From assembly GCA_020341815.1 (NCBI GenBank), contig CP070837.1, forward strand, positions 1,172,575-1,236,574: a stretch of 64,000 bases of DNA, in the 5' to 3' direction. This document shows, piece by piece, positions 9,001-39,000 of this stretch. A program made the translations under genes and the position numbers. The stretch comes from Candidatus Omnitrophota bacterium (GTDB lineage Bacteria; Omnitrophota; Gorgyraeia; JAFGHF01). The notes beneath the pieces were generated by a model. The model was not told the DNA's origin, did not search any database, and saw only the letters and a list, made by a program, of their open reading frames with translations. Numbering within the stretch: position 1 is the first letter of the stretch; each line of letters starts with the position of its first letter.

Positions 9001-12000
9001 ACAGGCTGAAACGGATGCAGGTGCCTGGGAGACGATAAGCGATATAGCATATAATATCTATTATAACCTGGTTGTCAAATGGAGAGATAATACGAATAAT
9101 AGAACCTTACATGTAGTCGGTAAAAGCTTAGATCATGGCTTCTTAAGAGAAATAGAATTGAGAAATAGAACATCAGGAGTAGTTAGCAAGTATGATGTTT
9201 ATACTCGTAGAGCTAAGGCTTTAAAGAATCCTGCTTCTGAAGAAGAGCTTAATTCACATCTGAAAGAGCTGCGGGATAACACAGACCAGCTTATAACGTC
9301 TATGGTTTTAGTAATTGACTATTTAAGCCAGGATTATCTGCCAGCAAAGAATCAAACCGCAGAGCCCACGGATAAAAATAAGCTATTAGGGATGTATGGT
9401 AAAAAGGACACAGGGCTTTTGTTAAACCTACCTAAGATAGAGGAATCTTTAATTGCAGCAAGGGCATCTTCACCCGGAGCTAATCAGGAAGATTCAATTA
9501 CAGAAGCTTTGGCAAATAACGATTTTGATCCAGAATATCTTAACACGCTGTCTTTGCAAGAAAAAGAAGATATTTTAGCCAGAATGCAGAAATTCACCGC
9601 TCCGTTAAATGATCTTATTACCGATTTAGAAAATGAAAAGAAACAGCCCGAAGGATTGCTTAAGCAGCTTAAAAAATTAATTAAGAATTTCAGTAGCCCT
9701 GCCTTTGTTGTCGTTGAGCCGTTATTCGATTCTGTTGGTTCCATACTTGTAATGAGGGTTTCCTCCTCTCCGGCAACAGTGTCTCATGTGGAAGAGAGCG
9801 GAGGACAAGATAGCAACATAAATCCTATTACAGATGAACTTGAGAAACACATAAGGAACATAGTGGAAAAGATTAGAAAGGGAGAGTTGCCAAATTTAGA
9901 GGTAAAAGTCTCTAGCGAAGAAAGCGGAGGGCGTTCCTCTTCTCCGGTTAAAGGCCAGGAAAGATTGACAACAATGTTGATTAACTGGACAAAGGCAATG
10001 ATTCTTAGCCTATTCATAAAGGCGAAGCTGCGCAAGCTATTGTTAGACAGAGAGGCTCAAGGCAAGTTAAACCTTAGAAGTTTAATAATTAAATGGGGGG
10101 CGGGGATCCGCTGGTACATAGACAGGCTGAAAAAATCCACTGCGGGACCAAGAGGCAAGACCGGAGTAATACTTGTAATAGACAAAGAAAGACCAGGCCG
10201 ATTAAAAGATTTTAACAAAGGGGATATATTTGCAGGACAACTGAGCCTGCCGGTAGTGGTATTTTGTGCGCAGGCCTATGCAGAATACCTTAAGAAGACA
10301 GGGCTGGGAGCGTTTGTAAGCGGGGATAACCGCTTTTATTCCAAAGAATATGCGGATATGTTCAGCCGCGTATTGATAGGAAACGGCATAACCGTATATA
10401 GAGATAAGTACTTGCAAACCACACCAACGCCGGTAATATCCTATATGGCATTTTATTTTGAAGATGTAGACACAGGAGTGAGTGTAACAGCCAGCCATAA
10501 CCCGCCGGACCAAAACGCAATAAAGTCAGCTAACCGGGATGGAGGGGTGGACACGGATGAAAAGTCAGAGCAAATAGCAAATATAGCGAATGATATGTAC
10601 GCCCATCCCGATGACTATGCATTATATATTGGGGATGCTCGAAAGGCCAAAGAAGAGGATGCCTTAGAGATTTATTATGATAACTATATTAAAAAAGTTT
10701 TTGGCACTAAGTTTGCCCAGACATTGTCTAAAGCCCATAGGCAAAAAGGAAGCGAGTTTATTATAGATGGCTTGGGAGGAGTGGCCGGACGAGCAGCCGC
10801 ATACTATTTGAATCGGCTGTTTAATGGTAATAGCTGGAAAGACATTGTCACAGTATTAAATGCGAAAGCAGACCCGACAATGTTAGGGATACACAGGCCA
10901 GACCCCTCAAACCCCAAGACATTGGAGTATTCAGGAGTATTAGAGACATTGGCAGGGAATCCGAGCATATTGATGTCCGTGACAGCAGATATGGATGCAG
11001 ACCGCACGGGGCCGGCAGTAATTATACCGGAAAAAGATGTAGTCAAGGCAATGACGTTCGGCTTATTCGTGACTGAGATGAATTTCGAAGGCAAAAAGGT
11101 GCACATAGTGCGCTTTACGCCGAACCAGATATTCACCCTGTTGGCATACGAGAGGATATTGCAGGCCTTTGAGAAGTTAATAGGGACCAGGGATGTAGAT
11201 GAGATACTGCAGGCTATAAAAGATAAGAGAGTAGACCCCTCCAAGATACATGTAGTGATGTCACTGCCCACAACGAGGCTGATGTATGCATTGTGCAGAT
11301 TGTTTGGGGTAACCCTGCATTATACGGCAGTAGGATTTAAGAATTGCGGCAAGGTAGCGAAAAAGATAGAAGATGAAGACCCCGAAGCAATAGTGATAAT
11401 ATTAGCCGAAGAGAGTGGAGGAGCGATAATCGGTCCGTTAGAGCGGGGTGAAAAAGGAGAAGGCATACATAAAGATAAAGATACATTGGTGCTTGCATTT
11501 GGATTATTTGAGACAGCAGCCCGCTTAGCCTTAGAAGATAGCAGTATGCTTGAGTTCTATATAGAAATGGCCAGCCGATTGGGAGGGCTGTTCTATTATG
11601 CGCGAGTAGATGCTTACTTGCCGACACAGGAAAAGGCCGAAGAGATTAAGGATCCCCGGATAATACAAGAGGCAGCAGAAGCAAAACAGAGAGCGATAGG
11701 CGCCTTTATGGAATTAGAGAATAGTAACGAAAAACTAATTAATACTTTTGGTAAGGAAGATCTCCAATATGAAGAGGAAGAATTTACGGTACCCAATACC
11801 TTAATATTTATAAAGGAGGAGAATGAGTGGGTGCTGTTAGAGCCTCGAGGCAGAAGGCTCAAGTTTAGCGATAAGACCTCCTTGGAGATATTCCACTTGA
11901 CCGAAGGTGCAGGCGGCGGCCCTGTAATTACACTTTATGATACCGAAGGAAGGCTGCTCTACTGGACATTAATCAGGCCTTCGGGGACAGAGTCATTAAT

Positions 12001-15000
12001 CAGAGTATATTTAGAGATATTCGAGCCCTTTGATAACCCGCAGCCAAGTCATCTATACAGTTATTATGCATTCCTGTTTGAGACATTGTATTTAAACGTA
12101 TATTGCCCGGAAGAAGACGGCCCAAGCTACTGGGACTTGCACGTTGATGATGTAGAACAGAGGTATTGTTCCTCCCCCGTAGCGAAAATCAAGGCGCTAA
12201 AGAAGAAAGGCCAGGAGGACGGTACGCAGAAGGTGAAAGTAAGCAGAAAAGTAACCAAAGACTCTAACCGAAAAGAAGAACCTTTGGAAGAATGGTATAA
12301 GGTTCTAGGTATATTAGGAGGTAATATTAAAAAGGGCAATAACAAGGTTTCCTCTCCGGCAGAAGCTAGAGAATACCATGAGAAAGCTGCAAAGCTTTTT
12401 AAAGAAAGAAAATTCGATGAGACCATAAAAGTCCTTACTAAGATTATTAAGCTTAATTCAAGCGATTCAATTGCTCATCACAATCGTGGAATAGCTCGCG
12501 AGAGAAAAGGCGATTTAAAGGGAGCGTTGGAAGACTTAAGAAAAGCCTGGAACATTAAAGCAACTGCGCTTAAGATGAAGAAATCCTCTTCTCCCGCAAA
12601 TGGAGAAAAACTTAATCCAACAGACATAAGGGCGGAACTCATAAATAGCACAGTGGTGTTCTTAACCAGCCGAAAATGGACAATGATGAGAAAGGGAGAT
12701 GAAGTAGTTATACGCAAATTGTCTGAGAAGCGCTTTGGAGAATTATATGCGCGTCATCCAAAAGGTATTCGAGACGCAGGCATATTCGTAAATTATGCTT
12801 GGCAAGATGAAGGACCGGGAGCGTTCAATATAGATATAGTAGAAACATTAGATCCTATAGCACTACTTTTGGCCTTTAAAGGAAGCCTTAAAGATGAGGC
12901 CGAAATCGAATTAGTAACTGCAAAGATTGAAAAAATTAAGGATGGCTTCAATAAGGTGAAGCTCTCCAGCCCGGCAGAAAATCGGTCTATGGAATTAATG
13001 ACTAACATTGTCTCTGTAGGCGCAGTGATTGTAATTGGGGCTAAGCCTCAATCAGTTTCCAGTCCTGTGTTTAAGATGTTTGCAAAAAGAGATGATAAAG
13101 ACATTGGAGCAGATGCTGTTAATAAGAAGACTTATAAGCAAACTGATGAAGGAAAGTTTAAAGTTGTAACTTTGCCTTTGGAACAAAAGAAGTGTGAAGG
13201 AGGAGGTTGTCCAGAAAACCATGGCGCACAGAATAGCGAAGTCGAGTTGCTTAAAAAGGCTATCGATACGCTGATAGACTTTAGGCTTGAGTTGCTACTT
13301 TCCGAGCCAAAAACAAAAACTGAATGTCGGCAGAAAATAGATGCAATGACGAGAGATTTAGAAGAGCAGTTTGGAAATCCCACAAAAGCTAAAGAGTTTG
13401 CAGAAAAAACAATTATGAAACAGGAAAGAGAGAGGCTTTTGCCTATAGCAGAGAAAAAGATATATTGGAAAATAAGAAATAGATTAATGGAGAAATTAGA
13501 TAAAAAGAACGGAACTATTGACAAAGATGATTGTTTAAACATATTACAAGGAATTGTTAATCAAAAAACAAAAATATTGGCTGAAAAGCAATTTAGAGGT
13601 GCACTTCTTCTGGGAGAAATAGGAACGGGAATCCAAGAATTAATAGGGCTTTTAGTTGTCGATGAAGCATTAAGGAGCGTATTCTTCAAGATGCTTCCGG
13701 AAGAAATCAAAAAGCAAGTTGAATTTGAAAAAGAACAAAAAGCACAACAGCCAGCAAATGGGCAGGGTTTAGGTGGGGTAGAGGTAAGAGATATGCTAAA
13801 AACGTTTGCAAAAAAATTGGAAGAGAACTTAGCGCAGAAATTTGACAAAAGATTAGGGCATCTGGAAGAAGAAGTGAAAAACGGAACCAATGACGTTGCG
13901 GAATTAAAACAAGAAGTGAAAAACGGAACCAATGACGTTGCGGAATTAAAACAAGAAGTGAAAAACGGAACCAATGACGTTGCGGAATTAAAACAAGAAG
14001 TAAGAAACGGCAAGCCGTATTGGGATGAGGGATCGGATAGGAAGCTTATTGATGATGAGATGAAGAAATTAAAAGAGGAGGACCCCGTCCGCTGGGCCGA
14101 CCCTCATAAACGGCAGGCAGAAGCAACTAAAAGACTTATAAAACAAGGAAAGCTCAGGCTTGAGAATTGTTTTGATAATACTATCCCCAATGATACATTA
14201 AGAAGAGAAGTAAAGCAAGCAATAAAAATGAAAAAAGAAGAGAAAGAAGACATAGGCGAAGAACTGACTTGGTATGATGTTGAGAAAATTTATAATGAAC
14301 TTTTATTAGAATTACTTATGGATGAGAAGATAGAAAAAGAAGATGCTAAAAAATTAGGGCCTTTGACGGCTTATGAACTTACTTTGGGAGAACTTGAAAA
14401 AACCATTCGTTTCCAGAAGAAAGATATGCCACATTTTGGAATTCTTTGTCCTACAAAAGATGGTGGAAATCATTTTGTTAATATTTTGGGAGTTAGAATA
14501 GATGAAAAGAGAAGGGTTTATATAACAATTTCAGAGTATAATACCGGTGACGATGAAACGTGTCGTATAAGGGAAATTGAACTCTCAGAATTTGCCAAAG
14601 AATTAGGAATGGATAAGTTTATTATAATTGCCAATAAGAAGGATAAAAGGATATTCAGGAAGGAACTTCGCGATGACGACAAAAAAGAGCTAATGAGACC
14701 CCATGGGCCTGGAACCAAGACCACCGGTCCCCAAGGCAGCAAAACAGGCAACGGAACAGGTGATGGAACAGGCGGTGGTAGTGGTAAAGGAACGTCTGGT
14801 CAGGGCAAAGGTGATGCCACCCCGCCTCCTTCAAACGGTTTCGGAACATCCGGAGCCGCAGCAGGCTTTACAGGTGCTGCTGCAGGTTCTTCGGATGCCG
14901 GGACGGATGCTGGCAACACAGGCGATGTTGACAATACAGGCGATGCGGGCAGCACAGGCCGTGATTTTCCAAAAGACGTTACTAATAGCAGTAAGCCAAT

Positions 15001-18000
15001 AAATACCATTCCATTCGATACCGATACCCATCAGGGAAGGGCCGATGCGGATAATAATAACCCAGGCGCAGAAGTAAATGGTAATAAGGGAACGTCAAAT
15101 ACAGAATTGGCAAAAGCTGTAGTTGCCAGCCCGGTTGAGCAGACTTTAGGTGGAAAAAGGGACGTAGAAACAGATAGATTTTTTGCTACTAGAGAAAAAT
15201 TTAGGGGTAGATCAGAAGGCTTATCTCCGCCTACTGCTTCAAATAGCACTTTAGAGCACAGAGCCAAATCCTCAATATCCGCCAGTCCCGCAAGATTAGT
15301 TTATCCCCTAAGGCCTCGCCATGAGGCAGATAATCTACAGTCCGCAGTTCACGGAACAAAAATAACCGCCCATATCCCCAATACGCACTACACAATATAC
15401 GATATTGCCTCCAGCCCGAGTATTATTGACCTTAATGAGGAAGTCCAAAAGTTCTTAAAAGAAGCCGTTAAAGATTTCATGGCTAAAGTAAGGGAAATTT
15501 TGGCTAAGAAAGAGGATATCCAATCCACAATTGATAAAATCAATGCACTCACAATAGAAGGAGAGTTCATTGATCAGATCTCTACAGAGTTATTAAGGAA
15601 ATCATTGGCTGATGAGTTAACAGATTTACTTAATGGACTGCAGTCATGCGGACTAAATATCCAGAGCGGAAAAATACCTCTTGAAAAATTACTTTCTAAT
15701 TTGGATGAATTTGCAAATGTAGAAAAACTATATATAGAAACCACAGGCTATATTAGTATACTTAATTCAGTTGCCATTTTAAGAAAGAGTCGTTCTTTTT
15801 CCAGTCCTGCCGAATGCAGCCCTGTTTTAACTCAGCAAGCTACTTTTTCACAGTTTTTGGCCAATCTGCTGAATAGAGAATCGGCTGATATTTCTCAAGC
15901 AATAAAGCGTTCGCTTTATAACTTCAGATGCAGATGCGAAAAATACATATTGCAAAGAGCGATAGATTGGTTTTTGAGTCTCAAGTATAAGCTATTATCT
16001 CTATTAGGAATTTTAGGAAATAAGAAAAAGCATTACGGAGATAGCGGGAAAGAAGCCGATAATGAAATAAATGCACTTGAAGCAAAAGGTATAGATCTCA
16101 GAAACCCGCGGGCTCCTTCAATGAAGCGTTCGCTTTATAACTTCAGATGCAGATGCGAAAAATATATTCTGCAAAGAACGATAGATTGGCTTTTAAGCCT
16201 CAAGCACAAGATACTATCTTTATTGGCAAATTTAGGAAATAAAGAAAAATATTATGGAGACAGCAGCAGAGAGCAGACCGACAAGAAAGTAAATATACTC
16301 AAAATAAAAGGCATAATAAAAAGAGTTTTCGGAGCACCGCGCGCTCCTTCCGATCCGCAGAAGCTCAATAATACTAATAATCTTGGCACCATAGGTGCAA
16401 ACGCTAGCGGTCTGCCTGTTTTGCCAAACAGCACCTCTATGCCCTTTACTGATCCATTTGAAGGCAGAGAACCGGCGAATATTCCTCCAATAGCAGGAGC
16501 TTCGGCCAATATAGAATATAGAAGGAATGAACAGAAATTAGTAATAGTTAGTAGCCCTGCAACAGCCGAAGGCCACCATAACGGTAAAATGAGAGGATGG
16601 CGGGTCTATAGGGAGGGTATCTTAGAATTAAATATAAATATACGTAAAGCAAGAGGTATAGGTACAAGTCTCGGAGGTCCGCAGGCTCCTCCTTATAGCT
16701 CTCCTATCTCAGTAAACCAGAGAGAGAATAAGGAGGTGTCTTATGGAAAGAGTACAGCGTTTGGAATTACGGGAATTCGAGAGAAAGATGCGGAATATAG
16801 AAGAAGAATGGATGGCCCTGGAACTTCAACGTCGGCGCAAAGCCAGGAAGGAGAAGGAAAACATTATCCAGGAAGAGGACCGTTAGAAACATTACCACCG
16901 ACAGAAGAAAAGGGCAATAATAATCCTAATGGCCGCATGGCCCGGGGCTCAAGCGGAAAGAGTCCGGCTGCTATAGATGATGCTCTGTGCATACAAGCTT
17001 TAACTAAGCTTGCCTCTATATTAGAAGCTATCCTCAATGCTGTTATGCAGGTGCGGTATATTGTATACCGCGGACCTCCGCAAGCTATCTCTACCTATTC
17101 CCCTACCTACTACCTACTACCTACTACCTACTTATTAATTAGCCCCATAGCTACAACTTCATTAGAAGAAGTTGCGGTTATGGGTTTTGTTATTTCCGGT
17201 TATTCCTCCCCAATAATCGTCGCCGCAGTAGTTGCGGTGCGTTTATATACATTATTCAATAATCTATTGCAAATGGTGGCGCTGACAGTAGCAAGCCTCA
17301 TTGTGAGGCTTACTTCTATCACCGCCGCCTCGGTGGGAGAACCTGTGGGCGCCGCCATTGCAATTAAACCAGTAGTGAAAGGAGATGGGTTACAATGTCA
17401 GGAGCCGAAGTCAGGAGTATCAAGTTTGATCACATCGTGGATTCGCCAGATTACAGGTTTGTATGCGTTACTATTGGCGGCAGGACACGAAATCTGCGAA
17501 TCTATAAAGACGGGATGGTTGAATCTTATGAGCACGGACGCTTTATCCAGCTTCCTAGCGAACTGGCAAAAGATATTCGTGCCACTCTCAGCCGTACGCC
17601 GAACATCCCTACCTTCTCACTCAAGAACGGAAAAGGCCTTAGCGAATAAGTTACTCGCTGAGGCCTTCTCTGCCTCCTCCCCGGCAGATGGTGAAGATAA
17701 ACCTAAAGTGAATCTTCCAAAAGAAGTGCTTGAATATTATGAGAGCCTTTCTGAACCAACAGAAGCAGCTTTAATCTCAGCTTGGAAAAACCGGGGAGGT
17801 AAGTTCGTACAAAGTAAAGACGTACATAAAGCTCTTACCGAAAGCAGCATGAGACCGAAAATAACAGAACCCCCACTTAAGAAACAAGAAGATGAGAAGC
17901 AAGAAGATGAGAAACAAGAAGAGGGGGTAATAGAAAAAATAAAAAAAGAGCTCATAATAAGCATAAGATGTTTTGCTATAGAAAGGATAGAAGTAGAAGA

Positions 18001-21000
18001 CCTTCTTAAAGATAAAGAAAAACAGCTCAAGAAAATAGGGGTTCTAAAGCGTTTATTAATAATGTTGCGTACTGATATAGGCAAAGAAATAAAACTACAA
18101 AAAAATGAGACTATCAAAAATATATTAGAAACTATAGGGGATTATATACAAGTTATATTAGATAATGAATTTAATTTAATAAAAGAAGGATTAGAACAAG
18201 CGGGAATAATAAAAGCTGGATTGCGGCTTGAAATGGGGACAAAAGATGAACAAACCAAGAAGAAAAAAGCAAAGCAAGAATTAAAAGCAATAGCGCTTAA
18301 TATAGCAGAGCAAAAAGCAAATTTAGTAACAAAAAATATACCGTTGATAGGGCAAGCGCTAATAGAGCTAGAGCAGGCCATAAAAGGACAAAACTCTACC
18401 TCCAGCCCTGCGCATTATAATATACCGCTTGTGCAGCATTCCTCTAGAAGAGAGCCTGGGAAAGTATCAACCACACTCACTAAGCAACAGCTTAGAAAAA
18501 TAAAAGAATTGAGAAAGACGGCATCCCTCGACAAGCAAAAAAAGATTCAACGATTGATGACTAAGCATTGCAATAAAGGTGACACAACAGACGCGAAAAA
18601 ATTTATTACACAGATGAAAATCACAATATCCAAACCGGATATCACCTCCAGCCCCGCACAGAAAAAGCCCGAAGAGCAAAAGATAGATATAGAACGCATT
18701 ATAGAATTAGTTAAAGAAGTAAGGCTAGGAGAATGCTTGGAGCATTCGGCAATATTAATTGGCGTATTGAGAAGATTAGGGGAAAACGCCCGGCTTGTAG
18801 GCGGTTATGAATCCTCCGAAGCTAATCTTCCCGACCACTATTATGTTCTTAGGGAAAATGGGGACAGGATAGATATCTGGCCAAGAGAGACAGAAGAAGA
18901 AAACTTTGATGAGTTTTTCGCTGAGGCACAGTTACGACTCGCTTTAGATAATCCAAAAATAGATGATGTGATTAACAAAGTCTTAAAGAAGCTCTCCAGC
19001 CCCATCGATAAAACAATAGATAGTCAAGTTATTGCATTTTTAGGCGCCCATTTATGGAACAATATTATGGCTTTGCTCAAAGCCCGGCCGAAATTCCTTG
19101 AGGATTTCTGCTTTAGTTATCGTTGTCATGAGGGCTGGGTGCCAGGGAAAAAAGGCGAAAATATCTGCGGCGCTATTAGGATGGTAACTATAAATTCTGC
19201 TGCTTATCTCCCTATCAATAAAGAAGCCAGCATTGTTCGACCTTCCTCCAGCCCGGTTAAGCAGAAACTTGGAGCTATTGTCTTGATTATTATGGGGATT
19301 ATGGTTGGTTTTCCGGGATTGCTTTTTGCTCAAGGATTAGCTCCTGCTGCATTAACCGCATCAATCTTTGGCAAGGCTATTATGGGGACAATAGGGGTTG
19401 TCTTGGCAGGAAAGCTCCTCAAGAACTTATATGTAGCGCGAAAGTATAAAAAATATACATCCAGGATAAATAAGCTTTTGAGGATAAGCGAAGAAAGCCC
19501 AGAGCGATTTGCCGATGAAATCGAATCGCCCGAATACAGAGATATCTATGAGCAGGTTATGCGTTATTCCGAAGATAACGCAGAACAGAATGAGACGTTA
19601 GCGCAACTACAGGAGTCTTATTTTGAAGCCAGGGAGAAGACCGTTGAGGAAATAGAGGAATTGCTGATGGCTTTTACTTTTCCTCAGCCTTCTTTAGAAA
19701 TGTGGCGGTTGAGTCTAAAAATTGAAATTATGCCAGGTTTTTCTAATAAGAAAGAGGGAAATACACGGGATGAGCTTTTAGAAAAACTTTCTGGCTTTGC
19801 CAATAGATATCCGGATATTTTCCTAAGTGTATTAGAGGAGAAGTTCGGCATAGAACTCCTAAGAGGTAATTTTAAATCAGGCGATTATATGCAAAGATTG
19901 CAAGAGCTTTATTTCAATATTAGAAACAGGGCTTATGTTTCTGCAAAGAATAAGCCTGTGCGTATTGCCTGGCATGTTTGGGATTTTTGCATCTCCTGGA
20001 CGTTGCGTTCCGGATTGGCTTTAGCGAAAGGAATTAGTTCCCGGATTCAAAAACTATCTGACGGAAAGCCAACAATAATTATAAAAACGCTCATAAAAGG
20101 ATTAGGCGATATAATTCAAAGAGCTAAAAATCTCTTTGCCGAAGCGCAGGCAGAAGAAGGTTATTGGAAAAAAGCAGAACTTGTCGTTAAGCTTAGTTTT
20201 TGTATTTCTTCTCTTGCTGCTGTTGCCTGGTATAACTGGGGCTGGAAAGGCGCCTTAATCACTGCAGTTGGCTTGCCTATAGGTTTCCCTGCAGCACTAA
20301 TAATGGCTATATTTGTTAGCGTTAAGATAATTCGATGGGCATGCAATCATCCAAAGCTGGCAACCACTGGAGTACTTTTGGTTATGGTGGGGGGACTTGG
20401 TTTATTCGGGGAGGCATTTGCAACGCATCCTCAGGCTTATCTGCCCCATCCGGATGGTCCGCAGGCATCCAGGAGTAGAGCGGGCAATATAGGAGACAGG
20501 ATTGCGCTTAGGGGGCCGGATGAGGCTGGCGAGGTTGTCCCCAGAGTTGTTGAGCCGACTGTAAAAGGCCAAGATCCGGAACGCTCCGGCCGTTCTCCCC
20601 CAGATAACACAACTACTCATTCAGATATATCACTTAACCCTAGTCAAACCCCTGCCGAGGAAACGTCTTGGCTCAGCAAAATCTTGGATGTTTTGGTGCC
20701 TGATGTTGAGGCAACTGAGCCTGAGGTGAATAAAGGGGCAGAGAAAACAAGCTTCTTTAAAGATTTCTTTAATAAGAAATACGATGTTATAAAATTGTTT
20801 AGGAATATATATATTGGCGATTGGCATCATTTTGGGATTTTTAGACTTGTGGGAAAGCAAGAGTACGTTAAAGATGGTAAGAAGGCTTATATTATAATGC
20901 TGCGAAAGATAATAGGGAAGATGCCGCCAATAGGCGGGTTCCATATATCCGGTAATACTTCAGAAGCGATTATTTTCGTCAATCAGAAACCAGATAAAGA

Positions 21001-24000
21001 CTGTGCTTGCGAAATGAAAGCTATGGCAAGCGGAGATCGCTTGAAGATACTCTTGGAAATAATGGATGATTTTCATCGCGAGGCATTAACGGGTAAAGGT
21101 ACATATTGTAAATTTACTTCAGAAGGCGAAATTCACTGGACAGAAATAGATGAATTTACTAAGGTCGATCCTATTTTGATGAATAATTTAAAAGCTCTAG
21201 CGCTAGATCTACAAGGTAAGCCTTTCGCCAAGCGTGAACTTATATATACAATAGAGGGAATGATTAAATCAACAGCTGATGATTACGAATTTACAAAACC
21301 ATTGGCCGGAAAGAGCGTCGAAGAATTGATCAAGTTAATAGAAGGAAATAAAAGTAAGCATGAGTTTAGACATATAATAGACGCATGGATTAGTGATTCT
21401 GAATTGTATCTTACAGAAAGAATAGAAGAATTGAGAAACTCTTTTGGCAATAGGTCAGATGAAATTATAAAAAGAGTTATAGTAGAATTGTCCGGTTTTT
21501 TGAGCACACTGATGGATCCTTCATATACGCGTTATCAATTCTGTCAAACATTCTTAGGAGCAATGCATTGCAGGAACATAAGTCAGCGCAATTCTAATAA
21601 TGGCTCTCATTATAGCGTCAGCCCCAATGATGCCGCTCATTTTATCATCATCTTGGCAATGATGAATTGGGCTAAAGGAGAAAAAGATATTACCGGTAGA
21701 TATTTCAACGTGAATGATTGGAGAGAGACATTACGTCCTTTAAGTGATGAGCAAATAATACAATACGCTAAAGAGATTTATGAGTATATATTCCAAAGAG
21801 AAATGCTCATGCCCGAGCTTGTAACAACATATGAAGCTAAAGGTATGTGCTTCATCACCTCACTGGGTAGTGCAGAGGCGGCTGAAGCGCAGACACCGGA
21901 TGAAACAAAGCCACCTATTAAAGAATGGATGATAGAACTATATCGAGAAAAACTCCAAGAGTTAAGAGACAAATTTAATAAGAAAAAGATTTCAAAAGAT
22001 GAATTTATTTCCAGACAATTAGGTATAATTTTAAAACTAGCTAATGAAATAAGATTTGAACGAAAGGTTGCGCAGAAACAGCAGGATTGGTGCTTTAGAA
22101 CAAAGTTAGATTTGCGGATATTAGGAGAGCAAATAGGATTTAGAGTTTTTAAATATTTAATCATTTTAGATAAGAATTCTGATGGGACATTGTCAGTTTT
22201 CCCGATAGATAAAATATTCGATTTAGTAGAAGAATTTACGAAAACAGAAATTGCTATATACAGATCTTACGAAAAAGCGAAACTCGCTAACTACAGATCT
22301 TACGAAAAAGCGAAACTTGCTAACTACAGATCTTACGAAAGAGCGAAACTTGCTAACTACAGATCTTACGAAAAAGCAAAGTTGGAGATTTATAAGGAAA
22401 TAGAATACAGTCAAATTTATAAAGACAGAATAGCTACTATAGAAATAGTTTATAGAAAAAAAATAAAAGCTGTAGAAGTTACTTATAGAGAAGGAATAAA
22501 GGCTGCAGAGGCCACTTATAGAAAAGGAATAAAAGATGCAATTGCAGCTTATGACAATGCAAAAGAGACAGTGCTTCAAGAAATTACTAATAAAGCAAAG
22601 CAGTTTATTATTAAAGCTAAACAGTCAAATAACGAGGCAATGCTGATTCAAAGAGGACAACCCTGGGGAATTGGCCTAAGCGGATTGGTATTATTAACTA
22701 TATTATTTATGCCAATGATGGCCTTTGGAGGAGAAACTGAGGTATCCTCATCACCAATTAAGGCTAAATTCAACATGGCGGAGGTTGTCAAATGTGCAAC
22801 TCTGCTAAAAACAACCAAGGCTAATTTTATAAGAGTATTAGCAGTTGGGTTGGGGTTAAGTCAGATTGGATGGGTTTGGATTAAGTCTGAAGAAAAATCG
22901 ATAATACAATTCTTTTTGAAACCCCTTTTAGGGGGATTGGGAATAACGATAGTCTTTTTAGTAGGCTATTATCTGGCAACAATTTATTTTTCTAATCAAT
23001 GTGAGAACTATCTTGAAAAAGCAAATACTTTTATTATGTCAAAACAGCATCAGAAGGCAATTTTGGAATGTAACTACGTTATTAAATTAAAAAGATTTAT
23101 TCATTCAAATCTTGAGGGATTAGCATATAGCCTTAGAGGAAGAGCATATTTTGAATTGGGGCAGTATCAAGAGGCTTTGCTTGATTACGATACAGCTTTA
23201 AGACTTATTGTTGATGTTCCCGAGCTTGCTTGTTTTGTTCCATCTCTCTATGTTAGTAAAGGTAGCACACTTTTTCATTTAGGAAAATTGCAAGAAGCTT
23301 TAGATAGTTGCGAGCATGCAATTGAATTTGATCCCAATTTGGGCCCGGCATATGTAAATAGAGGAACAGTAAAGGCTTCTTTGGGAAATATTGAAGAAGC
23401 AAAGAGAGATTTTGAAAAGGCAGTAAGACTAGATTCTAAATTACAGCAGGAAGTAGAAAAAACAAAGAATTATTTAAGAGGTAAGGGTATAGATATTTCT
23501 TCTTCACCGGTTAAGATAACCGACTCAATGAGTACCTATGCGGTGAGTCAGATTTTGATGGGATATAGGCTTGTTGAAATAAATCCGCAGAACATTCAAT
23601 ACATTAGCAATATCACCTCTTCCGGTTTAATCCGCGGGTCGGATACTGCGGAAGTAGATAGCATTAAAACCTCCCAAATATCCAACCTTCCGTATCCTGC
23701 CCGCAAATATTCTGTAATTCCAGTAAATGAAGTAATAAAGGAAAAGAGTTGTTCTTCTCCGCTTACACAAGATAGTAAAAATAGCGGTAAATTTGCTCTT
23801 TGGCGCGAGTCTATTGAGAATTATATTGAGAGCTACTTAGATTTTCACCCCACCTTATCAAAATATTTAGGCAAAGTTATTCCTTTTATAGAAGTAGCGC
23901 TTTTGGCAACATTAGTCGGGTTAATGGGAGTAGCTTTATTAGGAGGAGCTTATTTATCCTGGATAGTTACAACAGCCCTGCTGGGAGGTAAAGCAGTAGC

Positions 24001-27000
24001 CATTGTAGGAAGTATATGGATGAGCGCAAGCTTAGCATTAGTATCATTTGGAGCAGGATCATTAATCTTTTATAAGACAAAATGGAAGTGGTGGATGCTT
24101 GGTATGTTAGCGGGTTTGGTTGTGGGAAGCGTAGGGGCGTTATGCACACCGTATATAATCGCGTCTGTAACCACACCAAGCATAGGCTTAATTGTGGAAA
24201 CCATAGTAGGAACAATAGGCTTAGCAATATGTTGCAGGACAGAGCGGGGTAAGAAAATTTCTCAGTGCTTGGAGCCTACTATAGATTCCATATCTAAAAC
24301 TGAAGAGATAAGAAAAATAATAAAAAAGATAACGAAAAATAGTACGATAGACCAGATTAAAAATGATTTAGAAAAGGGTAAAATTGGTGTGCAAGAAGCA
24401 TGTTATAGAGTTTTAGCCTTAGCAGAATCAGCGCTTAAAAAAACAGATCCTGATAAAAAATTTAAAAAATTCAATACTCTTCAAGTAGAAGCCTTTGATT
24501 TGTTAATTACTGAGATTGCAAAAGCCAAAAGTGATTCTAAAAAGATTTCCCGAGAAATGATTGAGATGGTGATGTCTACCGGCAAAACTGAAGCTGCAGG
24601 GGTGTTTGGTTGTTTAGCCTGGACGCTGAAAGATAAGTTTGGTTACGAGAAGGTAATACTGACCAGTTGGCAGAAGACAGCAGTAAAACAGGATTACGAT
24701 AGATTAAATACTTTCTTTAAGGAAATTGGACTTTCTTGCGGCTTCCATAACGAAGAGCATTTATCAGAAGATGAATTTGAGAAATATTATAATAAAGATA
24801 TTCTTTTTGTTGATTATCAACTTCTGATGAATGATTGGGCACAGAGTAGAGCGTCAAACAGAGGGAGAAAGAATCAATCGGTCTTAATTAAACCGGGAGA
24901 AAAGAAAGAAGCAGGAACAGGAGAAAAGCCAGAGAAAGAACTTATTATTGCTCCAGAAAAGATTGCCCTTGTAGGTTTAGAAGCCGATTTCTACTTCCTT
25001 GACGACTTGTTTACACCCTTAGTAATATTGGGACAGCCTAAAGAGATTAACGAAAAAGACTTGGCCCAGTTTCGGGAAAATTATAAAAAGATAATAAAAG
25101 CTGTTTCTATGAGTAAAGAACTTGAAAAGCATAAGGACTTCAAAATATATGAATCGGAAACATATAAAGAAGTTGAAGGAGATTATCGCAATGGAGATAA
25201 TCAACTACGACATACTACGCATTTTGTTGAACTTACTGAGGAAGGCAAAAGGAAAGTAGGAAAACAATACATTGTCTTAACAGAGACATATCTTAAAGCC
25301 TATTTCCTTTATAACGGCAAGGATTACACTATTAGAAATGGATTGATTAGACTCTACAATGAACCAGCAGGTGTTATCTTTGAAAACAGACAGCTTCAAG
25401 ACCAAACTATTTGGATTATGCTTCATATAAAGGCAGGATTATTACCCGAAAACGAAGGAGATGTATTTGAGGACAGGTATTTAAAAATTATTTCCCATTT
25501 GTTTGCATTCCCTATCGTCTATACTAATTTTTATTTATTCCAGAAGGAATTAGGCCTTATTTGGGCATTGAGTGGAACTTCTGATAAAGAGGCATTTGAG
25601 AATTTAGGATTTAATGTTGTTAAAGTGGATAGCAGAGACTTTGAAGAGCAAAGAAGTAAAAAAGTTGAACAAAGAGACTTTCTCTCGAAGAATTTTGCTG
25701 CCAGCATAAAGACTATTTTAGATAAGTTGCAAAAGCTGATAGAGAAGCTTAAAAACCAATCCACAATTATCTTTGTTGACGACCCCGACGATGTTAAAAA
25801 GTTAGCTGAAAGAATTAAAACAGAATTTAAATGGCCAAAGGATAAAGTAGAGGCATGGTTACCTGATGATGAGATTGATGAAGCCAAAAGACACAAGGTA
25901 GGTTTGCCTGGACAAATAACTATTATCACGGCTAATTTGACGCGTAATGCAAACTTTAAGTTGCAAGAAGGGTCAACAAAATTCAATTACCTTATTTCAG
26001 GAGGTCGTAAAAATCCTCGTTGGATGAGACAGCTTCTCTGGCGAGTGGGAAGACTCGTAGAGATGAAATATGATGAAAATGGCAAAGAAACATATGTCTT
26101 TAATGAAGCAGATGTGTTTGTGTTTTATCATCTGGAGCAGGAGCTATTCTCACAATACCCGAGAATAAAGGAGAATCTCTCGGCTCTGTTAGATGGGAAA
26201 GACTGCATATCTGTAAATATAGATAGCCTCAGCAATAATGAAAGAAAAGCTGCTAGGTATATTCAAGAAGCTTTCCGTTTTACAAATAGTGACTCTATAA
26301 AGAATAGCAAGATGCAAGGTAAAATAGAAGAACAGATAGGTGCAGTAAGCGAAGCAATTGCAAGGCAGATGAAAGAAATAACTAATGCTCAAGAGAGAAA
26401 GGATCTTCAATCAGCCTATACAGTTTTTCTAGAGACTATTGAGGAACAGAGAGGTCTTATTTCCTTTATAAAAGGAGATATAGATAGGCTTGCTGCCCAA
26501 TGGTCTAAGAAAGTAAAAGAGATATTTGATACTACAATAGGAGCAGTTCTTGCAGGAGAGGGTTTAGTTATAGAAAGTGATAATAGAGAAGAGGAAGAAG
26601 AGGTTGATTCATCAGAAAGAGGAAAGATAGGAAATGTGTGGCGGGAAGTTATCGATAAATTAAGTCGTAGAAATAGAGAAGGTTCTGGGCTTGGTCCTGC
26701 ATTGGCAACTATAACTATGACAACAGTTATAGGTGTGGGTATAGTAGCGCAGGCGGCTGCCGCGCAGCATACTATGACGGCTCTTAAAGAAAGACACTCC
26801 ATGTTATTAAATCGGATAACAGAGGACCTGCGCAGTATAGGAATTCTCCAGAGAGAAAAGGAGGAGGCCAATGACAAGCGCGCGGAAGAGATAGATGAAG
26901 AGATAAAGGGATTATATAAGCGATTAGGGGTAATTTCGGAACAAGCGCAGGAAGTAGAGCACAAAATTAAAGTAAGAGAGGCTTATAGCTCTGCTAAGAA

Positions 27001-30000
27001 ACATAGCGGAGACATTGAAAATGTATTGTCAGATGAGCGGGTAAGCGCGAAGAGAAAAGATATTTTGGCGACTCTTGAAGCAGAGGGGTTATCTTTAGAT
27101 GAGTTAGAGGAATTACAGGCTAAGATTAACGGCCGCAACGAAGCCGAGGCAGAGTTACTAAAGGGCATAACGGATGCGGAAAAGAAAACCGAGCTTGAAT
27201 ACCTTATCAGCCAGAGAAATGCGCAGGAACAGAGCCTGCTAAAGCTTTACAGAGAGGATGCTGATGCAAGAATAGAAGATATCGGGCAGAGCGCAAACGA
27301 GGCAGATATAGCCATTGTTGGTGAGTTGAAAAATCGCTCAAAGAAATTTAAGGTTATAAACGACAGAAAATATAGCCTCTGGTCTTCAAAGGAGAAAAAA
27401 TTAAAGCAGCAGGAGACTAAGCCTGTAAAATTGTCTTCTTATAAAGGAAGAGATGAGGCGAGAAAGATTTTAGGTGCGAGGTTTGGGCAATTAGGAATAA
27501 CAGCTCAGGAAAAGGCTGAGTTCAAACTCCGCATTGAGAACGAAAAGCGCGCGGAGCGTAAAAAGTGGCTTAAAAATAGATTAGCAAAGGAGGAAAAGGA
27601 AGAGAAAGACAAGTTCCTTAAAGGACTTAAGATTTTCCGCAAGCACAATAATATAAAAGAGACCCGTGAAGATGTGTTTACCGAAGATGATTGGAAAGCG
27701 GCTATCAAAAAGGCCCAAGACAGGCTTGGATTGAAGATAGAGAAATTAGAGTCAGAAGGGGAAATATCAAGATTAGAGGAGCAAATAGAGGCAGAAAGAG
27801 AAAAGAAAGATATTGATAGGGATAAGATAAATGAATTAAAAGATAAGATTAAGGAACATAAAGAGGATATTAAAAAGATACAGAATAAAATCAGCGAAGA
27901 AGCTAAGGCAATTAGAGAACTCAGGAAAGAGTTTGCGGATACCGAAGAAGAGAAAAAGTTAATAGATGAACAGACGCGTCTTGATGATGAGGAAAAGGAA
28001 TACAATGAGAAGCGGGAGCAGATTTTAGAAGAAATAGAGGAATTGGAGCGAAGAGAAGAAGATATAGCTCAGCTTCCTCCAGAGGAGCAGAAAGAATTAA
28101 AATATGAGGCGCAGGCCTTATTTACGGAAATAAAAGAACTTATTCAGCAAAAAGAAAGACTTGATAACGATATAGAGACTTTAAAAGAGAGAAAAAGGAC
28201 TATTATCCAGGGTAAAGAGAATCACCGGGAGCAGATAGAGGAGTTAAGAAACCTTCAAGGGTGGCGCTTGCGGGCCCTATGGCAGGAACTTAAGGAACTG
28301 CGGAATGATTATCCTGAAGAGGCGGTTCGGGCCTTAGCAGATTATTATGGAGCATTGCAGGGAGTGCCGTATAAGAAAAGAATAAAGGCGGCTATCCAGC
28401 TGTTTAATCAGATTAAAGGCATTGACAGCAAAGGGCTAAGCGATGCCACAATAGGTGCATTGATTGAAGAATCAAAGGCTGACTTCCAGCGGGAAGATGC
28501 CCTTACTCTCAAGCGCTATCAGTTAGGCCGGGAGAAGGACGAGCAGAAGAAAGAGCAATTAAGGAAGGAAATAGCTGAATTAGAGCAGAGAGAATTAGAC
28601 AGGAAGACCAAGATAGAGAAGGCTGCCGAGAAGTTTGCCAGAAGAAGAGGGTATAAAAAAGACAGAAAGGATGAGTTTGTAAGCAGATATGAAGATTTAA
28701 TAAGTCAGTTAGAATGGATTAGGGAATATGTAGCGATAGAAAAAGGACGCTATGGCGTTGAGAGTAAGGAATACAAAGAGCTTGATTATATATCAAGGAT
28801 ATTGCCCGAATGTATAGACTTTGCAGAAACGCAATTGGAAAAGACGGAGGCGGAAAAGAGTTTAGCCGTCTTAAAAGAAATGGTAAATGACCCGAAAATT
28901 AGCAGGGAAGTTAGAGAAGGACGAAAGAGCAAAATAAAGAGCTTAGAAAATAGAATCGCATTCTTAAATAAGAGCATAGGAAGAAGTAACTTAGCAGAAG
29001 AGTTAAAAGATTCTCAAGTTCATATTTTAAAAGCAGTTAAAAGCGTAAACGGCTCTTTATATGCAAAGATAAAAGAGCTTTTGGATAATTATCCTAGGTT
29101 AAGGAAGCTTAAGGTCTTAGGCAAAGAGCGGGAATTAGAGCGCACTCAACAAGTGAAAGAGAATATTGAAGATGAGATTTCTCAAGAGGGGGAAAAGATA
29201 CATAACTACTTTATCTCTAAGGAATTAAACAGAGGCGATAAAGATGAAGAGGCCGATAAAGTCTGGAAGCTGCTCGAAGAGTTGAATAAAGGTTATTTAC
29301 TTACAGAAACCAACGAATATCCGGGCGTATTTAACTTAGTGCTTTCTCTGGGAGTGAAGAACTTCCAGAAGGATGTTGGTTTGCCGGTTACAGGGAATTG
29401 GGATAAGACCACTAACGAAAAAGCGCAACAGTTATTAAAAGAAAAAATTGCCGCAAGAGTTTCCTTCTTAAAGAATAAGGAGCTGCCTAGACGTATTCTG
29501 AAAGCAGAGATAGATGCTCAGAAGAAGAAATCCGATAAGACGCTCGCAGAGCTTGAGGAGCTCACAGCTAAGCAGAATGAGTTATCCAAGCTGGAAGCAG
29601 AGATTATACAGGAAGAAGAGGCCCGGCAGAAGGAAAAATTAGAGAAAGAATTGGCCTTACTCAAACCTCAGGCAGGTGTATTAGAAGAGGTAGATAAGAG
29701 GATTAAGGCAATAGAGGAGAGCTTGGCGGTTAAAGAGATAGAGATAAAGATTGCCGAGTTAAAAGCAAAGCAGGCTCAAGCAGAAGCTAAAGACCCACAT
29801 TTAAAGCGAGAAATAGAATTACAGGAAGGCAGAAAGAGGCACTTGGAAGAGGAATTCAGGCTGGCCAAAGAAGAAGAAAAAGACAGGAAGGTAATGCTTA
29901 ATGCAAGGCAGCAGAAACAGCTTTATATAGACCGCAATGAATGGAATATTAAGAAGAAGGTTTTGGATGCCTTTGAGCAGTCTCAAACGGAAACCTTAGC

Positions 30001-36000: not shown

Positions 36001-39000
36001 CACTAAAATAGATATTACAGGCAGGGTTCCCGTATCTATTATGGTAGATGAACAGGGCAACCCTGTTTACTATGTAGGCCTGGGTATTAGCGAAGAGAAC
36101 TCAGGCTCGGACTTCATAAATGGCCTGCAGATTGACCCCGAAGGAGAGACTGTTTACTACGCAAGCGGCCGGGCCGTGTTTAGCTGGGATAAGCAGAGGA
36201 AATATAATACCAGGATAAATGCCAACTTTACTCAGGATGATAATGTCAGTGTGCACTTAAGCCAGGACCTCACAAAGCAGTGGACCATAGACTTAGGCGG
36301 TAATTGTTACTGGGAGGAGAAAGAGGAACTCTATGACGGCACGGTTAAGGTCACCTGGAATGCGCCTTCAGAGAGTAACAAGAATAAGCTCAGTATTAGC
36401 GCCGGCTATGACTATAGAGAGTCTTTACAGCCCCAGGGGAGAATAGAACATACCTCTCTCACTAACAGTATAGTTATCCGAAATACCGTTCTGGGCATAA
36501 GGCAATTTTCTCTCCAGACAGACTATCAGTTGGAAGAGGAGGAGATTAGTCATAGGGTAAGCATCAATAAGCTCCTGCCCGCCCAGATAAACTGGAGCGG
36601 CACAGCAAAGTTTGATTATTATGGTAATCTGATTTATTCTACTTATGTGGAAAAGAACTTTGACGGCGCTTCTCTGCGCCTTGGAGTGAAAGGCGACAAA
36701 GAGAAAGAGGATGTGCGGCCTAATCTTAGACTGACTCACGGCAACTTTAGCTTAAAGGGAGACTTTAAAGATGAGTATAATTGGGGCGTAGGAATTAATT
36801 ATCGCAATATCGAGCTGGGGAAAGGGTTTGCGGGTACGGCCAGCATCGAAGGAGGAGAGGCGGCAGGACAACCCTGGATAGAGGCCGGGTTTGATGTCTT
36901 TCCTTTATTAGGAAAGTTGCGGCAAGAGAAGTTTAGCCTGCTTCCTCTGGATTTGAAAAACAAAAGACTCAATCTTTCCTCAGGTAACTGGAATACAGTG
37001 GGAGAGGATGCCGCAATTAAACAAGAGACCACAGATTTGCGCCGCCGGATATATGAGCAGCAGGATGAGCTGCAGCGCAGAGGAGAAAAGGTAACTTTAA
37101 ATAAGGAAGATGTAGCGCTATTAAATGAGCTTCGGGATATAGCGGGCAGAGGCTTTGCTCCCAAGGATGTTTTGGCTAACCTTATCGTTAATAAGAAAGT
37201 AGATGCAGACGAGCTCAAAGACCTCTTTAGAGACTGGGCATTTTTAGCAAAGGATACGGAGTTAAAAGACTATTTAGGAGAGAAGATAGATATTCAAAAT
37301 AAAGTGCACCTGGCTGAACTGTTCTTCTGGACAGGGTATCTGCGTCAAAATGGCGAGACAAAGACAAAGGACAGGATTATTGAATTAAACGGGGCCAGAG
37401 AGCAATTAAAAGATTCATTTAAAGAAAGAAAGGGCAGCAAGCAGTTTAACCCGGCCAATGTCAGGGATGCAGAAGAGCTCTGGTTACTGATTGGCCTGGG
37501 CGAAAAATATAGTCAGGACCTGGTTAAAGTGATATTGCGCTATCGCAGTTCCATTGAAAAGATAACCGGCGTCAAGCTGGATATTACTGCTCAAGGGGTA
37601 GTAGATATTTATCTTAACTGGGGAAGTTATCTCCAGCAGGAAGAGCAGAAGATTGAAGGGCAGGGCTTAGATGAAGCGCAGGAGAAAAAGGCCAAACAGG
37701 CCTTGAGCAAGAAGATACGGAATATTGCCGATGCTGAGACTACGCATTTACTTGATAGCGAGGCGCGTAAACAACCTTCGCAAGAGCTTATTGCCCTATT
37801 AGATTACCTGACTAAATTAGGCGTAGACGGGCTAAAGATATTTGCTAAAGTAGACCGCAGCAAGCTTCTTCCTTACGAAATGAAATTGCAGGCGGCAATA
37901 GCGTTATTAGAGGCCAAAGGCAAGGTCAAGAACATACCCCGCTATGTCTTTATATTGGAAGAGCTTTATAATATAGCCCAGGGCAACCTTGTTATCCAAA
38001 ATGACCTTTTCCCTGAAGGATTTGCTGCGGAGGAGGTTTCTGCGGAGCAGGCGACAATCTTTACCGGTTTAACTTATGCGGTGTATAGAGAGGATATCTC
38101 TGCCGACCATATTCAGAATGTTAGTTATCTCTACAGCCAAATTCAGAAACCCCACTATCCAGCCGCATCTGTTTACAATAAACTATTCATAGAATTAAAC
38201 TATTGGACAAAGGTTGGCGAATTCTTAGAGACCAGGAAAGAAGGAGCATTAGAGACAATAGCCGGCCTTTTAGCGGAAGATAGCAACCTTGCCTTTGGCA
38301 AGACCGAACTTACCATTGACCGGGTTCTCTCGGCATTAGGCCTTAATGGCTCCAGGAATAAACCTGTTACCAAACCCAAACAGCAATTACGAAAACAAAA
38401 GGCAGCTAAGGCAATACCGACGCAAGAGAAGAAAAAAGAGGCGGTCATCGCCAGCTTGCGTAGTAACAAAGAGAAAGAATTGCCTCCTCAAAATATGCCT
38501 CTCCATCTATATGAGGAAGCAACGGAGAAGGAGGAGCCCTCATTATTTGCTCAATTCCTCTCCGCAATTAATCCTTTCTCGGCAAGGCTTGCTTATGGGG
38601 ATGAGTTGCGCTTGCCTCAGGTTGCCGTAGAGGGAAGGACTATTCGCGTTAATGGCCGGCCTTACCAGATAAGGGGCCCTAGCTATTTACCGGTTCCTAA
38701 GGGTGAGGATATTAAGAGCTTCTTGTTTGATTATGATACGGTTGTCCGTGATATTGCCTTGATGAGGCAGTTGAATAGCAATACTATTCTCACCTATCCC
38801 ATAGAGGATGAAGGGATTTTGAATGCCTTTGCTGACGCAGGAATAAAGGTTATTATTGATTTTGCCGATTATGGTGATAGATATGTTGATTACATCAATC
38901 AATTTAAAGGCCATCCGGCCATTCTGTTGTGGTGTTTTAATGACCGGGATACTGCTTTAGAGCAGGCAGCGCAAACCGCGCATCAGCTTGACCCTGAGCA

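Follow-up and report, generated by a model that had tools for sequence, protein, structure and literature searches.

What does a module related to the SecA motor do in the interior of a single polypeptide of more than 21,000 residues? The question is raised by a 64,000 nt stretch of DNA from a Candidatus Omnitrophota bacterium (assembly GCA_020341815.1, contig CP070837.1, positions 1,172,575 to 1,236,574 of the forward strand), referred to here as the window. SecA is an ATPase; it drives the passage of proteins through the membrane channel SecYEG. The window has a G+C content of 42% and is spanned by one stop-free frame (frame 2, + strand, nt 2-64000, 21,333 codons). This frame is open at both ends, so the true protein is longer than 21,333 codons, and no gene neighbourhood is visible because the open reading frame (ORF) fills the entire 64,000 bases.

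A module at approximately residues 8185-8850 of the frame is collinear with SecA. It consists of a nucleotide-binding domain 1 (NBD1) with a Walker A motif, an insertion of the PPXD (preprotein cross-linking domain) type, a second nucleotide-binding domain (NBD2) with motifs V and VI, and a region resembling the SecA scaffold and two-helix finger. The homology of the motor core to SecA, and not to a generic helicase, is well supported. The module is probably best described as a highly diverged SecA paralogue; the giant protein that holds it would be a multi-pass membrane protein of the Archaeovorin type, known from Omnitrophota, with the module in one of its cytoplasmic loops.

Homology of the module to SecA

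Relatives of the module are very few. Two, both of them fragments, are all that phmmer finds in an exhaustive search across 1.84 billion representative proteins. P0001 is 606 aa (E = 2.4e-43, 28% identity), and P0002 is 359 aa (E = 9.8e-9), is without NBD1 and comes from an ENA contig of 1.2 kb. Word-indexed searches for homologues, run both with the module and with a profile of the three sequences, returned nothing; scans of genome and metagenome contig collections added only the P0001 locus and did not return the window itself. This locus (L002, 1471637-1493454) is in CP070797.1, titled 'MAG: Candidatus Omnitrophota bacterium isolate bin140'. The CP070797.1 'chromosome' record strings short contigs together with spacers of 100 N, so neighbouring genes in it are not true neighbours. 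The giant-gene relative in bin140 survives as the 606-aa fragment only.

Comparison with Pfam on an 840-aa piece gives a SecA_DEAD match (PF07517) with E = 1.1e-6, whose 28.6 bits exceed the gathering score of 24.6. On the same piece the DEAD family reaches E = 0.0031 and 17.7 bits, under its gathering score. A scan of a 5,000-aa piece no longer reports the SecA_DEAD match (E > 0.01), which shows that the signal is weak. SecA_PP_bind on the insertion has E = 0.024 and 15.7 bits over profile positions 7-103 of 110, under the gathering score of 23.5, and neither PF21090 nor Helicase_C matches in NBD2. SecA_DEAD has no match in P0001 and none in P0002, of which the C-terminal residues 81-293 were scanned and NBD1 is absent. 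An NCBIfam scan gave nothing relevant.

The identity to canonical SecA is approximately 18-20%. BLASTP against E. coli SecA (from NC_000913) gives E = 5e-6, with an alignment that begins in the Walker B region, spans the inserted domain and reaches GMTGTA. The PPXD piece is similar to SecA by Smith-Waterman comparison with z = 8, and 0/1000 shuffles reach its score; in the shuffle tests, the N-terminal part of NBD1 alone and NBD2 alone have no pairwise significance.

Profile comparison extends this. E. coli SecA as a search query returned solely enterobacterial SecAs that are at least 89% identical, which are unusable as a diverse profile. The comparison set was taken from viral contigs scanned with a DNA pattern back-translated from TNMAGRGTDI (motif V). 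The scan yielded 75 SecA loci and a non-redundant set of 29 SecAs that are 36-56% identical to E. coli SecA. Alignment of the three-sequence profile (window, P0001 and P0002) with the 29 SecAs by hhalign has a probability of 96.5% and E = 7.5e-10, and the confident stretch is from Walker A through motif VI. The window sequence by itself gives E = 1.4e-8, and the reversed-alignment control 0.02-0.05. When the module is divided, the best match of each piece is at the collinear SecA position, e.g., the N-terminal piece of NBD1 alone (E = 4.1e-5, SecA alignment columns 115-243) and the PPXD-like piece alone (E = 3.4e-5).

Structural comparison points in the same direction. Foldseek of the first of two AlphaFold2 (AF2) models against the PDB places SecA or SecA2 in all of the top 10 positions (E 1.8e-6 to 1.8e-3), and the RIG-I, DHX and Mss116 helicases appear lower (E > 0.03). 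Foldseek template-modelling scores (TM-scores) are approximately 0.18, so the similarity is local only. Searches of PDB sequences with the module do not reach SecA, and their top matches are spurious, i.e., apolipoprotein E helices.

The motifs follow the order of those in SecA. The Walker A motif, MVMSTGKT, corresponds to MRTGEGKT in E. coli, and the motif after it, KVILTSWQKTAVKQD...FFKEIGLSCGF, to VHVVTVNDYLAQRD...FLGLTVG. The equivalence of DILFVDYQLLMNDW to E. coli DITYGTNNEYGFDYLRDNM is weak, the module sequence being five residues shorter. The motif III equivalent ALSGTSDKEAFE corresponds to GMTGTADTEAFE, and ITIITANLTRNANF and RWMRQLLWRVGR are the equivalents of E. coli VTIATNMAGRGTDI and RRIDNQLRGRSGR, respectively. 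The SecA-specific TPLIISG, EAKEG and P-loop-initial M are all represented. TPLVILG in NBD1 is the counterpart of TPLIISG, and approximately 155 aa separate it from ALSGTS; this is the PPXD position, between motifs II (TPLIISG) and III (GMTGTA). Both PPXD-like stretches have SecA counterparts, the second of them, HIKAGLLPENEG, pairing with SecA EAKEGVQIQNE and the first being DYTIRNGLIRLYNEPAGVIFENRQLQD. The linker in front of the P-loop aligns weakly with SecA residues ~60-100, with A69 and E101/M102 retained. A 38-aa insertion in NBD1, SRASNRGRKNQSVLIKPGEKKEAGTGEKPEKELIIAPE, is missing from P0001 and from SecA in the alignments.

An original prediction, made from the letters of the window alone, had proposed a SecA-like ATPase module within the giant ORF at 24540-26110, and the module is indeed part of the single 21,333-codon frame. 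These coordinates (aa 8180-8703) are within the module, but its full extent is larger, approximately nt 24236-26689. The six SecA motif equivalents that were named are all present, one of them (DILFVDYQLLMNDW) weakly. The choice of SecA over a generic helicase holds as well, in view of the two Pfam scores, the PPXD insertion and the top 10 folds. The profile searches that were proposed bear it out in part, since SecA_DEAD is above its threshold but SecA_PP_bind is below and Helicase_C does not match. The fold comparison agrees in its ranking but comes from a model of low confidence with low TM-scores.

Probable scaffold and two-helix finger, and missing SecA domains

The segment LQSAYTVFLETIEEQRGLISFIKGD...AAQWSKKVKEIFDTTIGAVL pairs with the long scaffold helix and two-helix finger of SecA, where the partner of AAQWSKKVKEIFDTTIGAVL is EYKRESFSMFAAMLESL. 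The relationship is traced transitively via P0002. Comparison of window aa 8746-8850 with P0002 133-244 shows clear homology (Smith-Waterman z = 18). The P0002 counterpart region matches Pfam SecA_SW with E = 2.7e-4 and 21.5 bits, under the gathering score of 26.7, and matches a hidden Markov model (HMM) of the 29 SecAs with 16.6 bits; 0/2000 shuffles score as high, the shuffle maximum being 8.4. The AF2 models show a helix-loop-helix at this region, where the predicted local distance difference test (pLDDT) values are at their best, 61-78, amid low overall confidence. A scaffold/two-helix-finger block is thus probably retained in the module, as judged from these alignments.

The wing domain (E. 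coli ~669-755) is missing. Its absence is seen as a gap of ~55-100 residues in the alignment of both the window and P0002, and the gap falls between the long scaffold helix and the finger. The SEC-C tail (PF02810) has no Pfam match; an acidic linker and a transmembrane (TM) helix follow the finger-like region instead.

The nucleotide-binding site

As a reference for invariance, 120 columns were used that are nearly invariant among 18 diverse aligned SecAs. The window retains 37/120 (31%) of these. Residues retained include E101, M102, G107, K108, T109, E210, D212, D217, T221, P222, R509, R566, Q570, L571, R574 and R577, and those lost include T104, G105, D209, G508, G510, T511 and D512. The position of D209, the Mg-coordinating Asp of the Walker B motif D-E-V-D in SecA, falls on Leu-8326 by the ungapped alignments (hhalign and P0001) or on Gly-8325 by the MAFFT alignment. 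P0001 has Asn here and reads L-N-E-G-D where the window has G-L-E-A-D. E210 is E8327 and D212 is D8329 in the residue map.

Most of the retained invariant residues recur in relatives that are just 27-34% identical. Retention at this level of identity of residues that serve nucleotide chemistry only suggests selection on nucleotide binding. The Walker B Asp is lost, yet the module retains the arginine fingers together with the P-loop Lys and Thr and the catalytic Glu, so that binding is likely and the rate of hydrolysis uncertain. ATP-driven work had been proposed in the original prediction, with the Walker B acidic residues and the arginine finger as points to check. The equivalents of E210, D212, R509, R566, R574 and R577 are present, in keeping with the proposal, but with D209 missing the site is partly degenerate, and turnover of ATP by the module would have to be regarded as uncertain.

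Membrane anchors and predicted topology

Hydrophobic helices flank the module on both sides. The loop KTKWKWW of the upstream TM cluster and the exit sequence RTERGKK fit the positive-inside rule, which would place the module in the cytoplasm. The charge of KLSRRNRE, N-terminal to the next TM helix, is consistent with this location. That helix, LGPALATITMTTVIGVGIVAQAAAAQ, may be oriented in-to-out in the manner of a signal anchor. A comparable hydrophobic stretch, VAFLGSMAVVMIGSIGCQAAMAASG, is present in P0002. P0001 has the order TM cluster, then module, and the full order of TM cluster, module and single TM helix is held across P0001 and P0002, both of them fragments.

The segment from aa 8923 to 18212 is the longest TM-free stretch of the window, and a peptidoglycan-binding domain (PG_binding_1) and a glycoside hydrolase barrel of the GH2 type lie within it. 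If the module is cytoplasmic, this segment would be extracytoplasmic and a candidate exported cargo. Directly after the TM helix, at 26768-27000 (aa 8923-9000), there is a highly charged coiled-coil-like stretch, LKERHSMLLNRITEDLRSIGILQREKEEANDKRAEEIDEEIKGLYKRLG..., and a similar charged stretch is found behind the TM helix of P0002.

Other domains of the giant reading frame

The features of the window are listed in Table 1. A hydropathy scan reveals approximately 65 hydrophobic windows across the giant ORF. Domain II of PGM/PMM is not detected by Pfam at 10238-12016, and no Pfam family is found within the hydrophobic run at 54638-61354. A second SecA-like module was sought elsewhere in the 64-kb window and none was found. 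An antisense ORF at 25531-25986 was discounted, being taken as a by-product of the long frame on the other strand.

Table 1. Positions of the SecA-like module, its flanking segments and other domains in the 64,000 nt window
Feature	Position (nt)	Residues (aa)	Strand	Basis and remarks
SAM-dependent methyltransferase (Methyltransf_11)	1454-1798	485-599	+	Pfam E = 1.3e-13; near window start, TM-free stretch
PGM/PMM domains I, III, IV	10238-12016	3413-4005	+	Pfam; PGM_PMM_I E = 1.4e-22
Transglutaminase-like core	18668-18826	6223-6275	+	Pfam E = 0.0064, sub-threshold, weak
TPR cluster 1	23123-23440	~7708-7813	+	Pfam; loop directly before the TM cluster that anchors the module
Upstream cluster, ~five hydrophobic TM-like helices	23882-24235	7961-8078	+	Hydropathy scan; last helix followed by RTERGKK
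Helical linker, ~105 aa	24236-24553	8079-8184	+	In place of SecA N-terminal region; between last TM helix and P-loop
NBD1, N-terminal part	24554-25036	8185-8345	+	Pfam SecA_DEAD, hhalign, motif map
Walker A MVMSTGKT	24566-24589	8189-8196	+	Motif in NBD1
Low-complexity insertion, 38 aa, Lys/Glu/Gly-rich, SRASNRGRKNQSVLIKPGEKKEAGTGEKPEKELIIAPE	24845-24958	8282-8319	+	Inside NBD1, just before Walker B strand
Degenerate Walker B IALVG-L-E-A-D	24962-24988		+	NBD1, motif map
PPXD-like insertion with DYTIRNGLIRLYNEPAGVIFENRQLQD and HIKAGLLPENEG	25037-25501	8346-8500	+	BLASTP, Smith-Waterman, hhalign, Pfam
NBD1, C-terminal part	25502-25636	8501-8545	+	Motif III equivalent ALSGTSDKEAFE at nt 25565-25600
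NBD2	25637-26140	8546-8713	+	Within confident hhalign stretch up to SecA motif VI; ends with ETYVFNEADVFVFYHLEQ
Motif V ITIITANLTRNANFKL	25916-25963		+	R8648 = R509 equivalent
Motif VI FNYLISGGRKNPRWMRQLLWRVGRL	25982-26056		+	R8673, R8681, R8684 = R566, R574, R577 equivalents
Helical scaffold-like region and two-helix-finger-like hairpin	26237-26551	8746-8850	+	Transitive via P0002
Acidic linker ending KLSRRNRE	26552-26689	8851-8896	+	Sequence
Single TM-like helix LGPALATITMTTVIGVGIVAQAAAAQ	26690-26767	8897-8922	+	Hydropathy scan; ~45 residues past module
~9,290 residues without strong TM-like segment	26768-54637	8923-18212	+	Hydropathy scan; one marginal segment, aa 14932
PG_binding_1	29291-29416		+	Pfam 25.7 bits, gathering score 23
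GH2-type TIM barrel (Glyco_hydro_2_C)	38621-39151		+	Pfam 22-23.5 bits, gathering score 21
~30 strongly hydrophobic TM-like segments, dense run	54638-61354	18213-20451	+	Hydropathy scan; after the 9.3k-aa TM-free stretch
TPR cluster 2	61991-62230	~20664-20743	+	Pfam
NUDIX	62780-62881	~20927-20960	+	Pfam E = 0.0051, sub-threshold, weak

Comparison with known systems

SecA-like motors had been thought, in the original prediction, to be undescribed as components of giant bacterial proteins. This is incorrect. West-Roberts et al. 2023 (bioRxiv 10.1101/2023.11.21.568195) describe divergent SecA DEAD domains that adjoin TM regions and occur in the majority of Omnitrophota giant proteins; a 2026 preprint on Omnitrophota long proteins has a 20-protein PF07517 architecture cluster. 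The 2023 text presents the domains as being without scaffold and wing and as a long-branch clade apart from housekeeping SecA, and proposes that their role is to export the giant protein in which they lie, or accessory proteins. The module in the window is an extremely divergent domain of this kind. It shares with them a location in a TM-rich giant ORF, adjoining TM regions, the missing wing and an extreme divergence (long branches in their case), with its nearest relative coming from an Omnitrophota metagenome-assembled genome. The set of methyltransferase, PGM/PMM, TPR, glycoside hydrolase and NUDIX domains, the last weak here, is also that of the Archaeovorin type.

Two differences are apparent. 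A scaffold/two-helix-finger-like region is detected here via P0002, whereas the 2023 domains are described as scaffold-less, and this module has just two detectable relatives in the 1.84 billion proteins. The loss of the Walker B Asp has no mention in the searched parts of the 2023 preprint. What is added to its descriptions is the evidence for a scaffold/finger block, the Walker B Asp loss, which the window shares with P0001 (no other relative extends over the site), and a module placed directly upstream of both a signal-anchor-like helix and the longest TM-free, cell-wall-directed stretch.

Canonical SecA (3JV2, 1TF5, 1NKT) has NBD1, PPXD and NBD2 in the same collinear order, followed by the scaffold/two-helix finger that the module probably retains, and the two share MxxxxGKT, the catalytic Glu, D212, the D217/R566 pair, TPLxIxG, R509, R574 and R577. 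The module differs in its low identity, in the loss of D209, the erosion of motif V and the 38-aa insertion in NBD1, and in having no wing domain, C-terminal linker or zinc finger. It has a covalent TM anchor where SecA has an N-terminal amphipathic helix, and it is part of a polypeptide of >21,000 aa, whereas SecA is a soluble protein of ~100 kDa.

SecA2 of Mycobacterium and Corynebacterium is a paralogue beside the housekeeping SecA that has a shortened wing and no C-terminal tail and is thought to have special substrates (PMC7503281). SecA2 (M. tuberculosis, PDB 4UAQ) and the module are alike as SecA-derived forms with wing and tail reduced or missing. However, SecA2 occurs on its own as a soluble protein, has Walker A and Walker B both intact (PMC7503281) and is far closer in sequence to SecA1 than the module is.

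Possible functions of the module

The tentatively preferred reading, to which slightly less than an even chance is given, is that the module is a cis-acting, membrane-tethered clamp or motor of the SecA type through which the downstream segment is fed into SecYEG. The upstream TM cluster would tether the module covalently and thereby replace the lipid-binding N-terminus of SecA. The module could then dock on SecYEG as a dedicated cis clamp or motor and thread across the membrane the extracytoplasmic segment that lies downstream in the same giant protein. In favour of this reading are the SecA homology, the recurrence of nucleotide-site residues in distant relatives, the conserved order of TM cluster, module and single TM helix, the charges around the module, the PG_binding_1 and GH2 domains behind it, the earlier proposal of self-export and the existence of SecA2 proteins with a shortened wing and no C-tail.

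A number of findings weigh against this reading. The Walker B Asp, invariant in 18/18 aligned SecAs, is replaced in the window, and E. coli SecA with the substitution D209N reportedly binds ATP but has its translocation ATPase activity abolished. Motif V is eroded, with G510, T511 and D512 lost in the window and R509 lost too in P0002. NBD2 by itself is not significant in pairwise shuffles, hhalign or HMM comparison, and for the window's scaffold region alone E is 0.023-0.077, a level that the reversed control also attains. The AF2 models are of low confidence, with a pLDDT of 42.6 from the alignment of the three sequences and 45.2 when enterobacterial SecAs are added to it. The topology is assigned from hydropathy and charge only, the interaction of the module with SecYEG is itself presumptive, and the downstream segment opens with the highly charged coiled-coil-like stretch.

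A fuller version of the preferred reading takes the catalytic site into account. It supposes a tethered cis SecA derivative in which clamp and two-helix finger are kept and the Walker B Asp is replaced, and which would be either a slow or non-hydrolysing ATP-gated clamp or a motor with altered Mg coordination, threading its own ~9,300 residues via SecYEG. This version is unlikely. If true, it would represent a mode of self-export unlike that of SecA or SecA2, by a domain fuller than the 'scaffold-less' one of 2023.

A somewhat unlikely alternative, and the one that fares best against the preferred reading, is a pseudo-ATPase, i.e., a SecA derivative in which hydrolysis has been lost and which would act as a nucleotide-binding or structural clamp, whether for SecYEG docking, as a polypeptide holder or as a regulatory switch. 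The power for export would come from canonical SecA or the proton-motive force, or export would be co-translational. The Leu and Asn at the D209 position of the window and P0001, the eroded motif V, the absence of R509 from P0002 and the retention of only 31% of the SecA-invariant columns agree with such a loss. So does the statement of West-Roberts et al. 2023 that a normal SecA is encoded as well in Omnitrophota genomes that have giant genes. However, unless ATP binding or turnover is under selection, the persistence of K108, T109, E210, R509, R574 and R577 at 27-34% identity is difficult to account for.

It is improbable that the module is a trans-acting accessory motor similar to SecA2, which would export other proteins, such as separately encoded hydrolases or substrates of pilus or type II secretion systems, with the giant protein serving only to hold it at a defined membrane site. 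The form without wing and tail parallels mycobacterial and corynebacterial SecA2 (PMC7503281). The Omnitrophota giant-protein literature reports secretion and pilus genes on either side of giant genes, and the phrase 'or of accessory proteins' in the 2023 preprint allows for such a role. That the module immediately precedes a signal-anchor-like helix, with the longest TM-free stretch behind it, is most simply read as acting in cis.

A generic superfamily 2 RNA or DNA helicase domain (DEAD-box or RIG-I-like) that resembles SecA by chance is barely credible, since the weak Pfam DEAD match and the RIG-I, DHX and Mss116 helicases at the lower Foldseek ranks are outweighed by the higher SecA_DEAD score, the PPXD-matching insertion between motifs II and III, the counterparts of TPLIISG, EAKEG and the P-loop M, the flanking membrane segments and the SecA top 10 fold matches.

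For the export or membrane insertion of polypeptides of tens of thousands of residues, an in-built SecA-type module, already present in the literature, is the only obvious clue. Should the module in the window prove active, an unusual catalytic site would be compatible with SecA chemistry; should it prove inactive, the idea of a 'self-export motor' for giant proteins would need revision.

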